This document shows positions 18,953 to 47,310 of a DNA stretch of 64,000 bases, one piece after another. The stretch covers positions 256,001-320,000 of the forward strand of contig CAVWLP010000002.1 of NCBI GenBank assembly GCA_963755915.1. Reading direction: 5' to 3'. The notes beneath the pieces were generated by a model. It had not been told where the DNA came from. It did not search any database and saw nothing but the letters and a program-made list of their open reading frames with translations. Each line of letters begins with the position of its first letter. The first letter of the stretch is position 1. Source of the DNA: an uncultured Phycisphaerales bacterium. GTDB taxonomy: Bacteria > Planctomycetota > Phycisphaerae > Tepidisphaerales > Tepidisphaeraceae. The position numbers and the translations under genes are program-made.

Positions 18953-19885
18953 CTAACTTGCGCTGGCCATGATCTGATCGGTGATCACCTGCACGAGCTG
19001 CTCGATGTCCTGCTCCGAATAATTCTCCGGCGTAAGCGCCGCGACCGCTTTCTCAATCGGCGACTCCGCCGCGCCCTGGACGGGCCCGGTCCCGGTCCCG
19101 CCATCGATGCACATGCGCCCCTTCGTCGCGACCTCGCCGCCCACGCGGGTGACAAAATCGCTCGAGCAACTGAGGCCCTGGAGCTGGCCGTCTTTGAGCC
19201 GGGCGTCGGCCATGCCGAACCTCGCTTTTAAACCCAGCAGCTCTTTCATCTGATCGTTGGAAAGCGTCTGCACAGATCCGACCTGCTTGGCAAGCAGCAG
19301 AATCCGCGAATACGCGTCGACGATTTCCAGCTTGTAATAGGCATCCTCCAGATCGGTACCATAAGAAACCGTGCCGTGATTGCTGAGCAGGATCGTGTTG
19401 GCGTCTTTGACAAACGGTGCAAGCGATTCGCCGAGGCGCGTGTCGCCCGGCGTGACATATCGCGCCGTCGGCACCCGGCCCAGAAAAACCTCTGCCTCAG
19501 GGTGAACGCACGTCGGCAGCTCCATCCCCGCCACCGCGAAGGCCGTCGCGTGCGGCGGATGACTGTGAATGACCGCGCGAATATCGGGCCGATTTTTGTA
19601 AATGAACAAGTGGAGCAAAATCTCACTCGTTCGCCCGCGCTTACCGGAAACCTGTTTTCCTTCCATATCGACCACGCAAAGATCGTCCGGCTTGAGCTGC
19701 CCTTTGCTGATGCCCGTCGGCGTACACAGCACACGATCTTCCGAGAGGCGATAGGAATGGTTGCCTTCGTTGCCGGCGCAAAAACCCTTGTGCCAGATGC
19801 GGCGGCCGATGTCGCACATCTGCTCCTTGAGCTTCCATTCGGGGATTCGTGGGGCACTGCTATTTTTGCTTTTTTGATAAGCCAT
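18953..19885 (-). CDS. Class II aldolase (fuculose/rhamnulose-phosphate type) with C-terminal encapsulation peptide
   Basis: EGNHS, TPTG, TSEILLH, IHSHPPHA, LSNHG; terminal helix DIEQLVQVITDQIM; ATG at 19885 with GAGG upstream. Confidence 0.9.
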   Translation of the reverse strand: MAYQKSKNSSAPRIPEWKLKEQMCDIGRRIWHKGFCAGNEGNHSYRLSEDRVLCTPTGISKGQLKPDDLCVVDMEGKQVSGKRGRTSEILLHLFIYKNRPDIRAVIHSHPPHATAFAVAGMELPTCVHPEAEVFLGRVPTARYVTPGDTRLGESLAPFVKDANTILLSNHGTVSYGTDLEDAYYKLEIVDAYSRILLLAKQVGSVQTLSNDQMKELLGLKARFGMADARLKDGQLQGLSCSSDFVTRVGGEVATKGRMCIDGGTGTGPVQGAAESPIEKAVAALTPENYSEQDIEQLVQVITDQIMASAS

Positions 19886-19947
19886 TGGGAAAACCTCTTT
19901 AAAATCCCTCGTGACGAATTGGCGCTCCGATTCTTCGAGATGTCTTT

Positions 19948-20060
19948 GGCGCTCTTTTAAATGCGAATGCAATGCAGGGGAGGCGGGAGACAACCCATAT
20001 TTTTCCAAGGTTTTTCTCCCGCCTCCCCCGCACCCCCACCACCCTCTTTCCACTTCCCCT
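19948..20060 (+). repeat. Palindromic repeat family B, copy 2 (interrupted by IS110 at its distal end)
   Basis: GGCGCTCTTTTAAATGCGAATGCAATGCAGG and stem GGGGAGGCGGGAGA/TCTCCCGCCTCCCC; continues at 21595-21602 once the IS is removed. Confidence 0.8.
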
Positions 20061-20075
20061 GCTATGTTGGTTGTC

Positions 20076-20403
20076 AAGTGTGGGCCGCATTCGCCGCCTT
20101 TATTCTTTTGTCTTTTTAAGCTGTTGCTCGGCCTGTCAGTGTCCGCTCTGCATGGGCTGTTGCCATCATTGCGGCAACGCTCTTCCTGCTATCCGTACCT
20201 GGCGGTTTGCCAGTACACCATGGTCTAATACGTCCGTTGCAGGCGGTTCACGCTGACCCAATCTAACCGCCGAACGCTCAAGGGCGCTCATAGGGGAAAA
20301 CGGGCGCGTTACACCGTGGCTCGTCTCTTTCACTTTTATTCCAAGCTCTTTATCCGTCGTCCATCCAGGCTCCAGAAGTTCGGGGACAACCTTGGCCGGC
20401 TTT
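20076..20403 (-). ncRNA. Predicted bridge/seek RNA of IS110 element 1 (boundaries approximate)
   Basis: Target loop at about 20250-20310 and donor loop at about 20172-20240, with guides matching the reconstructed target and the element end. Confidence 0.7.
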
Positions 20404-21543
20404 TTACGCTGCCAGTTTCAAGCCCAGATCCTGCGCTTTGACCCGGCCGGTTTTGATCCGCCACAGGTCCACCGCCAGTTGCCGCGCCAAGGCCACCGCG
20501 GCTTTCTTGCGCATGGCTCTGGCTCCGGGGTTCTCGAAGACCTGCTTCCAGCGCTTCAGACGAAAATACTCCGGCTGGAACTTGGGCAGCAGCCACGCCA
20601 GTTCCACCAGCACCGTGCGCAGTCGGCGGTTGCCATGTTTGTCGATCGACAGATTCATCCGGCTCTGGCCTGAGGAGGATTCTCCAGGGCAAAGCCCGGT
20701 GTAGCTGGCGATCTGCCGGCGGTTCTGGAAGCGATTCCAGTCGACGATCTCACGATCCAGCAGCTCATAGCTGAGGTGTCCGATTCCCTTGATCCGGGCC
20801 GATTCGCGGGACTTGGCCTCCGCGCAGAGCTGGCGGGTCAGTTCATCTCGCTTCTGGTCCATCATCTCTACCATCTCCAGGTCGCGGGCAAGCTCCTTGC
20901 GGATCGGTTCGATCAGTTCTGAGCCGTAGAGTTCTTCCAGCTTTTTCAGCAGCGGCTCACACGCCAGCGGCTCCCACCATTTTCCCGGGCGATGGATGCC
21001 GAGGCTGTGCAGCAGGCTTCGTCCACGGGCGATCCAGCGCTGCCGTTCCTTTCGGTAGGTGTTGCGCTCGCGCCCCAGGCGGCGGTGGATCTCCTGGGCC
21101 ACCGTGGGGACACGCACCAGACGCAGCGCCGTCGTGTTGCCGGCGAGATGCCGGTCCAGACGCGAGAGCAGTTCGGTGGCGTCGATCTTGTCGTTGACTC
21201 TCTTGCGGCCGCGGGACAGACGTTCGGGGGCACAGACCAGGCACTCTACGCCCAGGGCGGTGGCTTCGCGGTGCAACGCGAAGCCGTAGGGACCGGCTTC
21301 GTAGACCATCACCACGCGTTTGGCCAGCGTCAGCTGCTTTTTGAGAAACTCGATGAAGACGGCCGGCGAGAGTTTTTGGGCCGGTTGAATCCCCTGATGA
21401 TCGACCATCCGTGCGAAGGTATATTGCTGGCTGTGGGTATCCACGCCGAGTTTGATCACCTCGTGCGACTGATTGGGCTTCGAGACTCTCTCCCCTCGAA
21501 CTTGGGAGGCCTTGCGGCTACCTTTAGAAGAATTGTGTTTCAT
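20404..21543 (-). CDS. IS110 DEDD recombinase/transposase
   Basis: LGVDTH, VYEAGPYG, NDKIDA, ASYTGLCPGESSSG, KHGNRRLR, AVALARQL. Confidence 0.95.
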   Translation of the reverse strand: MKHNSSKGSRKASQVRGERVSKPNQSHEVIKLGVDTHSQQYTFARMVDHQGIQPAQKLSPAVFIEFLKKQLTLAKRVVMVYEAGPYGFALHREATALGVECLVCAPERLSRGRKRVNDKIDATELLSRLDRHLAGNTTALRLVRVPTVAQEIHRRLGRERNTYRKERQRWIARGRSLLHSLGIHRPGKWWEPLACEPLLKKLEELYGSELIEPIRKELARDLEMVEMMDQKRDELTRQLCAEAKSRESARIKGIGHLSYELLDREIVDWNRFQNRRQIASYTGLCPGESSSGQSRMNLSIDKHGNRRLRTVLVELAWLLPKFQPEYFRLKRWKQVFENPGARAMRKKAAVALARQLAVDLWRIKTGRVKAQDLGLKLAA

Positions 21544-21710
21544 GGTTGTCGGGTTTAGTCGACGGTGGCTAGCCCGACAACCAACATGCCATCTAACCGT
21601 CCAAGGCAAAAGACAGAAGCCGGAGACGGTGGCGCGAAACTCAGGGGCATCTTTTTCGCGTGATTGGGGGCACACGCCTGCGCGGGGCGTTGCCGAGTCT
21701 TTTCTTAGGG

Positions 21711-21845
21711 GGACGGTTGAGAGGAAAAGGACGGGGAGTGGGGTGGGTGCGGGAGGGGCGAGGGGGAAACCCTTGGGGCGCCCTTGCGACTCCTCTCGCG
21801 TGGTTCCCCCTTGCCTCTCCTGCATTGCTTTTAGCATTTTGAATT
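21711..21845 (-). repeat. Palindromic repeat family B, copy 3 (inverted relative to copy 2)
   Basis: Reverse complement GCAATGCAGGAGAGGCAAGGGGGAACCAC...GTTTCCCCCTCGCCCCTCCCGCACCC closely matches copy 1. Confidence 0.85.
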
Positions 21846-21870
21846 TTGTCGCGATGAATTGCATGGCCGA

Positions 21871-22163
21871 CTAGACCTCCATCCCAACCACGGCCGCATC
21901 GAGAATCGCCGCGTTATACGCATCCAGCGGCACGCGCTTTTCGGGATAAAACGGCATCGCCGCCTCGCGGCTCTCCGTAAACGCGATCAGGTCCCCCTCG
22001 GCCGCGCCCACTCGTCGTAAACCACGAGTGATTCACTGCTCTTCCGCGCCTTGCCTGCGAGGCTGAAACGATCCTGCACTTCGACGAGCAGAAAACGCCC
22101 GCCGACGAGCGTTGAATAGAGGGGCTGAAGCGTGACGCGGCCAATGACCTTGCCTACGCGCAT
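21871..22163 (-). CDS. eutN: BMC vertex (EutN/CcmL) protein (apparent frameshift near 22010)
   Basis: MRVGKVIGRVTL...LVVYDE|LGAAEGDLIAFTESREAAMPF...LDAYNAAILD. Confidence 0.8.
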
Positions 22164-22868
22164 GACGCCAGCTCCTTCAGCCGATGCTGGACTTGTTCCG
22201 GAGCGGTTCGCGGCCCGCGCGAAACGCGCGAGCAGATTGCGAATCTGCGGCAGACTTTTGTACGGATATTCCAGGATCAGCACGTTGGCGCCGATGGCGG
22301 TCATCGCCTGATCGACCGATTCGAGGCAGGTGCCCACGATCGCGCGGAGGCTCGAGCAGCGGTTGGCGTAAACGATCGCCTCGGCGGCTGATTTGACGAG
22401 GAGAACGCCGCCGCCGGCCTGGGAGGATTTGATCTGCGACGCGAGGTGCTTGATGACGGCGGTGAGTTGGGTGGGCTCGCTGGTGAGATCGATGGGGGCC
22501 AGCCGCGTTTCGCGCGATTGAGCCGCCAGGGCGGCTTTGGCGGCGCCGCAGGGGCCGTCGCACCACCAGAGAATGGCGCCCTTTACCCCCTCGGCCGGTA
22601 CCCCGGGAGAGGGTTGGGGTGAGAGACCCCCTCCCCTACCCTCCCCCGGAGTACCGGGGGCGGGGGAATTAAGAGTACCAGGGGAGGGGAAATTGGGAGT
22701 ACCAGTGGAGGGTAGAAGAGAGTCGGGCCCGTAACCTACGCTGATGCGCTTGCTGCGGATCCAGTCGGCCGCCAACGGCGTGAGGCGCGCACCGTAGGGC
22801 AGCACGATCTGCCCGTCGCCCGATCCGCGGGCGTGAAGGTCCTGAAGTTGGCGGGCAGTCACGATCAT
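22155..22868 (-). CDS. BMC-associated protein: N-terminal TPLA.D motif plus RpiB/LacAB-like C-terminal domain (probable frameshift near 22215)
   Basis: ARLTPLAADWIRSKRISV; YANRCSSLRAIV...IGANVLILE; alternative-frame end RTAPEQVQHRLKELASCA*. Confidence 0.65.
22586..22712. repeat. REP-like family A cluster inside a coding region
   Basis: Inverted pair of CCCTC.CCCC.ACCCTC.CCCGGAGTACCGGG.G.GGG plus two partial GAGTACCAG.GGAGGG units. Confidence 0.85.
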
Positions 22869-46154: not shown

Positions 46155-46266
46155 AAACTATGAAGCCGAGCCTTTCTCGGGACGTGAACGGGGTCAAAAT
46201 GCCCCAAGTATGAACGAGCGTACCGCGTAGGTCGCTCAAACGTCTTTTTTGAGAAAGGACTCGGCA

Positions 46267-47310
46267 ATGCGAATTCTCGCTTTGGACCTGGGAAAGAACA
46301 AGAGCGTTTTTGTGGATTATGTCACCGGCGGTGGAGAAAGAACGTTCGGCAAGATCGGCACCAATGCCCACGAGGTGCAAAAACTACTCGAGCGGGTGCG
46401 TCCGGATCGACTGGTCATCGAGGCCGGTCCGGCGGCAGGATGGGTTTGTGATCTGGCGGAGCGGAACAATGTTCCCGTCCAGGTGGCCAATGGCAACGAT
46501 GAACGCTGGCGCTGGAAGACGGTGAAGGAGAAGAGTGATCGTAAAGACGCGCTGAAGATGGCGGCGATGTCGGAGATGGATTCGCTGCCGACGGTGCACG
46601 TGCCCAAGGCATCGGTTCGGCAGTGGCGTTCATTGATTGAATACAGACACGGCCTGGTGGATCGCCGCACGGCGCTCAAGAACTCGATCCGATCAATCTA
46701 CGAGCGGCAGGGTTTGTATTTGCCCTCGGCGACCAAGGCGTGGACGAAAGCGCGACTGGAGGAAATGAGGAAGGAAGCAGCGGCCGCATCGGCGGAAGAT
46801 CTGTGGCTGTTTCAGATCGGTTGTGAGGTGGCGCAACTGGAGCACCTGGAGAAGCAGATCGAAACTGTCGAAAGCAAGCTTCAGGAGTTGGGCCAGGCCA
46901 ACAAAGCGGTGAAACGATTGCAGGAGGTGCCCGGCGTTGGTCCGCGGCTGAGCGAGGCGGTGGCGGTGATCATTGATGATCCCAGGCGATTCAAGAATGC
47001 ACGTCAGGTGGGATGTTACGTGGGTCTGACGCCGCGGCGCTGGCAGAGCGGCGACAGCGATCGCCAGGGGCGGATCAGCAAGGCAGGCAACGCGCTGCTG
47101 CGGGAGTTGCTGGTGGAGGTGGCGTGGCTGGGGGTTCATCGCAATACGTGGATGAAGGACGTGTACGAGAGGGTTCTACGTGACAGCGAGAAGCGCAAGA
47201 AGATCGCGATTGTTGCGGTAGCCAGGAGATTACTGGTGAAGCTGTGGGCGATGCTGCGGGACGGAACCCGATGGAGAGAACCCCAGCGATCGCTGACGGC
47301 GGCCACTTGA
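46267..47310 (+). CDS. IS110 DEDD recombinase/transposase
   Basis: ALDLGK, VIEAG, KSDRKDA, VPGVGP, YVGLTPRRWQSG, ISKAGN, AVARRL. Confidence 0.96.
   Translation: MRILALDLGKNKSVFVDYVTGGGERTFGKIGTNAHEVQKLLERVRPDRLVIEAGPAAGWVCDLAERNNVPVQVANGNDERWRWKTVKEKSDRKDALKMAAMSEMDSLPTVHVPKASVRQWRSLIEYRHGLVDRRTALKNSIRSIYERQGLYLPSATKAWTKARLEEMRKEAAAASAEDLWLFQIGCEVAQLEHLEKQIETVESKLQELGQANKAVKRLQEVPGVGPRLSEAVAVIIDDPRRFKNARQVGCYVGLTPRRWQSGDSDRQGRISKAGNALLRELLVEVAWLGVHRNTWMKDVYERVLRDSEKRKKIAIVAVARRLLVKLWAMLRDGTRWREPQRSLTAAT

Follow-up and report, generated by a model that had tools for sequence, protein, structure and literature searches.

Guide RNAs encoded by insertion sequences (IS) of the IS110 family were described in 2024 under two names. 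SeekRNAs were shown experimentally for four members of the IS1111 group and one IS110 member (PMC11187229), and in the IS1111 examples the match to the top strand of the target lies 5' of the match to the bottom strand, the two overlapping in the target (Siddiquee et al., PMC11187229). Bridge RNAs were shown with IS621, and covariance models predict them in the right ends of 93% of the IS1111 elements in ISfinder, with ISPpu10 and ISPa11 among the elements modelled by hand (Durrant et al. 2024, PMC11208160); the portions consulted of a 2026 review cite only the 2024 papers for IS1111 (PMC13604230). The two founding papers did not settle whether the RNAs of IS1111-type elements read the donor as well, a question on which the natural data set described below bears. 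Here we consider a stretch of 64,000 nucleotides from an uncultured Phycisphaerales bacterium (GCA_963755915.1, contig CAVWLP010000002.1; "the window"), in which an earlier note, made from the letters alone, had proposed an IS1111-type element at 20059-20403 with its own target and donor loops. This interval is precisely the 345-nt stretch from the stop codon of the transposase gene (tnp) to the right tip of an insertion sequence. We consider it very probable that an intact, recently active IS110-family element of the IS1111 type lies here, that the interval is its 3' non-coding part, and that this part encodes a guide RNA in the tnp sense. Every string that the note quoted was found, on checking, on the minus strand where the note had put it; the features described below lie on that strand unless stated otherwise.

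The boundaries of the element are set by comparison within its own genome, which was searched as three contigs (6.6 Mb). Six copies of 1534 bp, a length that includes one AG core, are 100% identical, and in the window the whole insertion sequence spans 20059..21592, as bounded by the divergence of flanks and by 12 empty sites. All six copies have the left flank GGACGGTTAG and a right flank of GGGAAG (four) or GGGAAA (two), such that 6/6 are inserted in a single orientation at GGACGGTT-AG-GGGAA(G/A). The joined empty site GGACGGTTAGGGGAA occurs uninterrupted 12 times (GGGAAG in 10, GGGAAA in one, and GGGAAC in one), and about a third of the usable target sites in the genome are occupied. The left target half GGACGGTT with its core AG (21594-21593; together 21593..21602) is identical across the 6 filled and 12 empty sites, and the empty sites carry a single AG: insertion is specific for site and orientation and proceeds without a classical target duplication. 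The empty site GGACGGTT-AG-GGGAAG had been reconstructed in the earlier note, which also suggested a genome-wide survey of insertion sites; the survey, in filled and empty sites alike, confirms the reconstruction. The target lies within an approximately 100-nt repeat resembling repetitive extragenic palindromic (REP) sequences, with a G-rich hairpin and 22 BLAST hits in the genome.

The element is of the IS1111 type, as had been proposed, and has the matching anatomy: subterminal repeats, a long 3' non-coding region, and a top-strand match 5' of a bottom-strand match. The left junction reads GGACGGTT-AG and then ATGGC (21602-21588), and the right junction reads ATAGC-AG and then GGGAAG (20063-20053). 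The left end (21576..21592) comprises the extension ATGGC (21592-21588) and the subterminal inverted repeat ATGTTGGTTGTC (21587-21576), and the same end is found in close relatives; the right end (20059..20077) comprises TTGACA (20077-20072), the subterminal repeat GACAACCAACAT (20075-20064), AGC (20063-20061), and the core AG (20060-20059). The two repeats are perfect over 12 bp, within the 7-17 bp of the IS1111 group; 5 nt separate the left one from its tip, and 3 nt and the core separate the right one from its own. Non-coding sequence amounts to 345 nt downstream of tnp (20403-20059), compared with 49 nt upstream (21592-21544).

The observations that carry the guide-RNA reading begin with the target-binding module (20250..20309), in which stem P2 (20309-20301 with 20260-20250) frames a 5' loop, UUUUCCCCUA (20300-20291), an inner hairpin, P3 (20290-20271), and a 3' loop, GCGGUUAGAU (20270-20261). 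The 5' loop is complementary to T-AG-GGGAA(AA): within it, TTCCCCTA is the reverse complement of T-AG-GGGAA, UUCCCCUA is complementary to the same top-strand bases, and all ten loop bases are complementary at GGGAAAA sites. The 3' loop is identical to (G)CGGTT-AG plus the AT of the left end. It is preceded by a G (20271) that closes P3; its CGGUUAG is the left half plus the core; and GGCGGTTAG (20271-20263) equals GACGGTTAG except for one G-for-A, a would-be G.T wobble with the bottom strand. The identity extends two bases into the element (CGGTTAGAT), the final AU being the element's first two bases, and the two guides overlap over TAG in the target. The guides named in the earlier note, one complementary to the core plus right flank and the other equal to the left flank plus core with one wobble, are thus present as described.

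Do these loops change when the target changes? DNA was fetched for 2 genome relatives, then 79 loci, and then 80 loci. At 63-73% protein identity there are fourteen relatives (L007, L008, and twelve of L087-L100) whose ends are the same and whose non-coding RNA region is much alike; their scaffold is near constant, whereas the two loop stretches differ and follow each element's own flanks. In L097, for example, the 5' loop TGATGTCACC accompanies the right flank GTGACATCC and the 3' loop GTGAAAAGAT accompanies the left flank GTGAAAAG; L007, L008, and L094 pair a 5' loop (C)CCGACCCC with the right flank GGGTCGGG; and L093 has the 3' loop CCCGAAGAT and the left flank CCCGAAG. Across all clades, the mean run of right-flank complementarity is 5.4 for an element's own flank (n = 57) versus 2.68 for the flanks of other elements, and left-flank identity beyond the core averages 2.16 (n = 58) versus 0.93. 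The summed guide-flank score is 227, against 112.0 +/- 11.4 when permuted (30 distinct guide pairs), and in the close clade it is 89, against 42.8 +/- 8.0 (9 pairs), with 0/10,000 permutations as good in either test; one representative was used per distinct guide pair, some relatives share a target, and the events are not fully independent. The finding that the note had set against its own proposal, the same loops kept despite different flanks, is not what the relatives display. Matches are weak in L087, L100, and L094, where left flanks agree for only 1-2 bases beyond the core, and in L092, where the right flank agrees for 3; these relatives may represent off-target insertions. Opposite the first base of the core, the loop often has an unpaired residue (A or G in L008, L088, and L094). 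In total, the comparison strongly supports the target loop and points to natural retargeting in relatives.

The fold is likewise supported by comparison. A covariance model built from the fourteen close relatives plus the window element matched 75/100 sources at E<=0.05, full length, on the gene strand, and shortly downstream of the transposase match; sixty of the 75 are loci at ~40% protein identity, mostly in metagenome-assembled genomes of Verrucomicrobiota and Acidobacteriota. Within the window the model finds one site only, with no match to a second IS110 element at 46249-47310. In an alignment of 71 distinct relatives, 96.0% of cells are paired, compared with 75.2% after shuffling and 16-45% with slid partners, and 23/29 pairs show changes on both sides; it must be held against these counts that the alignment was fitted to the model, which favours structure. 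Given the effect size and the slid controls, we regard helices P1, P2, P3, and P5 as secure, and the check proposed in the earlier note, a covariance model run on homologues, finds the predicted fold conserved. Three G.U pairs are invariant in 15/15 close sequences; the complementary strand would have A.C in their place, which fits folding of the tnp-sense strand and not of its complement. An element variant from an independent soil DNA run (20 differences over 1,561 nt, with other flanks) carries a C-to-U change (minus strand) at position 20202 in the 3' strand of P5, which turns G-C into G.U and keeps the helix. No Rfam (15) family reaches its gathering score anywhere in the window; in 20000-20450 a single match at E<=10, to a long non-coding RNA at E 6.1, was rejected as spurious.

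The structured bridge/seek RNA covers at least 20318-20137 (20137..20318, a minimum extent), with the option of a three-way junction. P1 is formed by CGGU (20316-20313) and ACCG (20247-20244), while RNAalifold, run on the extended alignment, has ACACUG (20137..20142) as an alternative partner of the 5' CGGUGU (20316-20311). Relatives maintain either pairing, and the distant clade keeps the same three-way ambiguity with other sequences (GGAACG / CGUUCC / GUUCC); this may reflect two conformations, or long and short forms of the RNA. The earlier note ended its second hairpin at 20174, which falls short: the structured RNA extends 3' to about 20137.

Might the non-coding region instead act as DNA, through protein sites or single-strand hairpins, with the likeness to the flanks a leftover of insertion or simply chance? 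No promoter-like site was found inside the element, as such a reading would have it. However, the invariant G.U pairs are strand specific; the guides stand 130-240 nt from the right junction and ~1.3 kb from the left one and yet change with the flanks while the ends stay as they are; and RNAs of this family have been experimentally shown in related elements (PMC11187229; PMC11208160). We consider a DNA-only role extremely improbable.

Returning to the guide-RNA reading, the second, donor-binding module (20143..20246) appears to read the element's own end. Helix P4 (CCGCCUGC, 20246-20239, with GCAGaGCGG, 20151-20143), which covaries across clades, is followed by a donor 5' loop (20238-20219) containing CCAU (20223-20220), hairpin P5 (20218-20195), which also covaries, a donor 3' loop, GGAUAGCAGGAAGA (20194-20181), and hairpin P6 (20180-20156); P4 and P6 together are 92.7% paired. 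As the earlier note had seen, ATAGCAG (20192-20186) is identical to the final stretch of the right end joined to the core, and ATAGCAGG adds the first right-flank base, G; this 8-nt identity is unpaired in all 15 close sequences. Element ends are invariant within the close clade, and the 3-nt extension of the right end varies in more distant loci, where a noisy search for the longest exact inverted repeat was replaced by copy-to-copy boundaries plus a pattern. The RNA triplet that follows GGAU equals this extension in 59/59 located loci (AGC in 15, AGG in 43, and AAG in one, L067), the right end having been located in 59 of the 75 aligned loci by a pattern that fixes its neighbouring bases, a point that tells against taking the agreement at face value. 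The base after the donor-loop core equals the first right-flank base in 54/59, G with G and T with T.

Is it necessary for the second module to read the donor? An alternative that we judge unlikely treats the first module (~70 nt, 20318-20244) as the whole guide, has the transposase read the ends via the subterminal repeats, and leaves the second module as a precursor tail with a part in processing, stability, or regulation. It draws on ISEc11, for which an RNA of 82 nt outperformed the 154-nt form in moving a mini-IS and end recognition was left to the protein (PMC11187229), on a left-end match that is 4 nt long and lacks the core, and on the ability of the first module to close itself through P1. 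What it leaves unexplained is a donor triplet that follows the right-end extension through three states at every located locus, the conservation of P5, P4, and P6 with compensatory changes down to ~40% protein identity, and the presence of the 8-nt identity ATAGCAGG in an unpaired stretch of each close sequence.

If the second module does read the donor, how is it closed? The earlier note drew GCAACG (20240-20235) with CGTTGC (20179-20174) as its outer stem. That stem is perfect and can form in this copy, but one of its six pairs is broken in 11/15 close sequences. The CGTTGC strand also takes part in a hairpin with downstream sequence (GCGUUGCC...GGCAACaGC, 20180-20156), and a hairpin at the P6 position recurs in the relatives' folds, among those listed. 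P4 brings the sequence that directly follows the first module together with a segment ~30 nt past the 3' loop, and its equivalents in other clades include CCGGUCUGC/GCAGACCGG, UUCCUCUUCC/GGAAGAGGAA, UUCCGCUUC/GAAGCGGAA, CUUCUCUGGC/GCCGGAGAAG, and CUCCUUCGCG/CGCGAGGGAG, among others. A contiguous P4 helix of at least 7 bp is found in 62/71 sequences, mostly at a constant offset; given that 2,242/4,970 unmatched partners also reach 7 bp, the length of P4 alone is weak evidence, and the argument is that of changing sequences at a fixed place. GCAACG/CGTTGC is thus probably not the closing helix of the donor module, and the conserved P4 would enclose an extra hairpin. A third candidate, the CCUGC/GCAGG closing helix given by RNAalifold for the 15 close sequences, was rejected: it shows no variation by which to judge it, the donor guide would be hidden inside it, and P4 is what the distant clade favours.

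The protein encoded alongside this RNA is a transposase/recombinase of 379 aa (20404..21543; ATG at 21543, stop at 20404-20406). It scores 163.8 bits (cut-off, 140) over residues 33-363 with NCBIfam NF033542, "IS110 family RNA-guided transposase," and matches PF02371 at E 8e-16. Residues D35, E82, D118, and D121, invariant in 41 homologues and spaced as D..E..DxxD, are presumably the DEDD catalytic residues. GLCPGESSSG in the translation is the C-terminal GL-P----S(t)G motif of the IS1111 group; in the same homologues G283, L284, G287, and G292 are invariant, and P286, S290, and S291 are nearly so. A 486-aa open reading frame (ORF) reaching up to 21864 was rejected as the gene, being a spurious extension through the flank and the repeat; homologues start at the Met equivalent to 21543. 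Homologous transposases number 2,355 at E<=1e-20 among 8,000 candidates scored. The best named relatives on plasmids are at most 37% identical and are labelled "IS110 family" or assigned to the ISMno20, ISRel9, ISSso6, and ISEc45 families, labels that do not settle the element's subgroup. A PDB sequence search returned nothing at E<=0.01. The other IS110-family transposase gene of the window (46249-47310, plus strand; 353 aa) aligns at 35% identity over the C-terminal 139 aa only, which agrees with the earlier view of the present element as a second, divergent member of the family. The source genome as a whole has 19 IS110-family transposase genes in three families (9, 6, and 4 copies).

With respect to expression, the element turns up in public sequencing runs of soil and rhizosphere metagenomes. 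Three metatranscriptomic libraries yield Logan contigs that cover it in part at a depth of 2-4.5, and one 226-nt metatranscriptome contig covers 20203-20426, that is, the end of the gene, the target module, and the RNA into P5. A circle junction was not seen in the contigs of the three RNA libraries and one DNA run, whose uncovered parts are uninformative on this point. A promoter scan of 19950-21700 found no sigma-70-like site, and the two terminator-like sites in the same interval lie on the plus strand and score within the shuffled range. According to two papers, transcription of both gene and RNA in such elements starts at a promoter that forms when the ends meet in the circle (PMC11187229; PMC12288879). 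A consensus TTGACA (20077-20072) lies in the right end (RE), and across an RE-AG-LE junction with the left end (LE) it would face CATGTT of the left end over a 17-nt spacer. We infer that TTGACA could serve as the -35 element of a circle-junction promoter.

Several further points weigh against the reading developed above. The single-sequence fold of the non-coding region is no better than chance (minimum free energy z = -1.12, with 14/100 shuffles as good). The 5' target guide does not keep a fixed register relative to P3: from one relative to another it moves one base to either side (CUAU, CUU, or CU precedes the stem), for which IS621 offers no precedent. The metatranscriptome contigs are a hint of RNA, one in which strand, ends, and level are unreadable and DNA carry-over is possible. 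The transposase has no match to PF01548, the Pfam N-terminal model, at E<=1, and its length of 379 aa (379-458 aa across the clade) falls outside the 330-350 aa quoted for IS1111 transposases, which weakens strict membership of the IS1111 group and not the shared anatomy. As for the donor, the 59/59 concordance speaks well for a coupling of RNA and right end, but it comes down to approximately two independent changes. On the donor 5' side, only CCAU (20223-20220) can pair with the left tip, ATGG, and no complement to the core is present. The base opposite left-end position 4 is U in 38/38 loci when that position is A, and C in 12 and U in 12 of 24 when it is G; the position is thus pairing compatible in 62/62 loci whose left end was located, with the C state confined to one clade. 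The CCAT match is then a weak and unproven candidate for a left-end guide, and the complete bridge RNA of the earlier note, target loop followed by donor loop, stands for the target guides and the right-end guide and is weak at the left end, where it comprises 4 nt and no core. Finally, by analogy with ISEc11, for which an 82-nt target-only RNA sufficed (PMC11187229), the donor module may be dispensable.

With these points in the balance, we posit the following mechanism. The RNA, once transcribed and processed, would be bound by the transposase. In the target module, the 5' side would pair with core and right half on the top strand, and the 3' side with left half and core on the bottom strand, directing orientation-specific insertion after the AG of GGACGGTT-AG-GGGAAG inside the REP-like repeat. 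The donor 3' loop would pair with the right end and core on their bottom strand, and the donor 5' loop would touch the left end briefly, at its first bases. In this way the RNA would bridge a donor, presumably a circular copy joined as RE-AG-LE, to the target for a presumed DEDD/serine recombinase, which would carry out the chemistry. The 3'-side guides run past the core into the other partner, the target loop with AT of the left end and the donor loop with G of the right flank. As the guides carry the other partner's first bases, both match product junctions; such matching resembles handshake pairing, or could mean that the same RNA is used for excision. A guide RNA of this kind would account for the six identical copies and for their strict preference for one position in a low-copy repeat.

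Can this be generalized? We put forward only tentatively, at rather less than even chances, the idea that IS1111-type elements use true two-loop bridge RNAs and not target-only seekRNAs, with the donor module closed by a long-range helix in a three-way junction and handshake-like bases extending the bottom-strand guides. The clade at ~40% identity (L010-L086 and L101-L166) is instructive here. Its empty target is ...T-GG-TTAGA (87 instances in fetched flanks), whereas its RNA carries AG in both the donor loop and the 3' target loop. Counted over distinct flanks, its left junctions are AG 26 : GG 2 and its right junctions GG 40 : AG 2. These counts, of AG on the donor side against GG on the target side, imply that the two cores differ at their first base and that each junction mostly keeps the core of its right-hand partner. 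If the two-loop idea were true, this verrucomicrobial/acidobacterial clade would amount to a natural experiment, its bias reflecting the direction in which strands are exchanged or heteroduplexes resolved in this group.

The surroundings of the element add some observations of their own. The right target half, GGGAAG (20058-20053), and the remainder of the REP-like repeat with its G-rich hairpin occupy 19960..20058, and a second copy of the repeat lies inverted at 21720-21831, ~125 nt beyond the left end of the element; the arrangement of the two inverted copies around the element is as in paired REP clusters. Similar G-rich hairpin repeats are found inside the 3' non-coding regions of relatives L090, L092, and L093. 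Among close relatives (L007-L100), the spacer between the RNA and the right repeat ranges from ~108 to 353 nt, is unconserved, and seems tolerant of insertions. Two of the genomic copies, L005 (G000 C2:1386065-1387640) and L002 (C2:1812294-1813868), share a left flank identical over at least 90 nt, differ in their right flanks, and lie in opposite orientations, as might follow from a duplication or from a rearrangement mediated by the IS. Immediately upstream of the element in the window, a gene for an EutN/CcmL-like (microcompartment vertex) protein (21870-22170, minus strand) is split by a frameshift near 22000: its N-terminal part ends with ...VVYDEWARPRGT and a stop, and its C-terminal part (...GAAEGDLIAFTESREAAMPF...MEV and a stop) is in another frame, which could be a real break or an assembly error. 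After the element comes a class II aldolase gene (ORF 18953-20077; Pfam E 1.4e-48). With the EutN/CcmL-like gene before it and the aldolase gene after it, the element sits inside a probable microcompartment operon.

What does such an element offer? It and its relatives form a natural data set in which one recombinase and RNA scaffold with constant donor ends has been matched to at least 8 different sites among close relatives, while donor-guide changes appear in more distant ones. The set could also aid the choice of compact recombinases from GC-rich hosts for engineering.

With IS621, the likeness is in the two internal-loop modules, in one guide per strand around a 2-nt core, the left-end one being a candidate here, in target and donor specificities that are independent (PMC11208160; PMC11208158), in bases beside a guide that match the other partner after exchange, and in a recombinase presumably of the DEDD plus serine type. 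In contrast to IS621, whose RNA is encoded in the left end, the RNA lies here in the right end after the gene; the strand matches come in the opposite order; AG takes the place of CT as the core; and a long-range helix with an extra hairpin inside it closes the donor module. The product-matching bases also extend the bottom-strand guides here, whereas the handshake guides of IS621, in the parts of the structural report consulted, extend the top-strand ones (PMC11208158). With the seekRNA elements ISEc11, ISPa11, ISKpn4, and ISPst6, the present element shares a downstream non-coding region, subterminal repeats, and short extensions (PMC11187229). It also has the order and overlap of guides of the IS1111 seekRNA elements, their specificity for site and orientation, often in repeats, and the GL-P----SG motif; retargeting among close relatives is as for ISEc11 and ISXne4 (PMC11187229). 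It differs from them in a transposase of 379 rather than about 340 aa, in its distant sequence, and in its soil planctomycete-like host. A donor pairing of the second module is supported comparatively here and was not claimed in the seekRNA paper (PMC11187229). The right-end bridge-RNA predictions for IS1111 elements, in the sections consulted of Durrant et al. (2024), have the same location and the same two-loop logic. What appears to go beyond the published text, namely, an IS1111-type RNA that would read the right end of its donor and product-matching bases on the bottom-strand guides, may already stand in figures or supplements; the element is no new mechanism and adds a well-documented example of an RNA class published in 2024.

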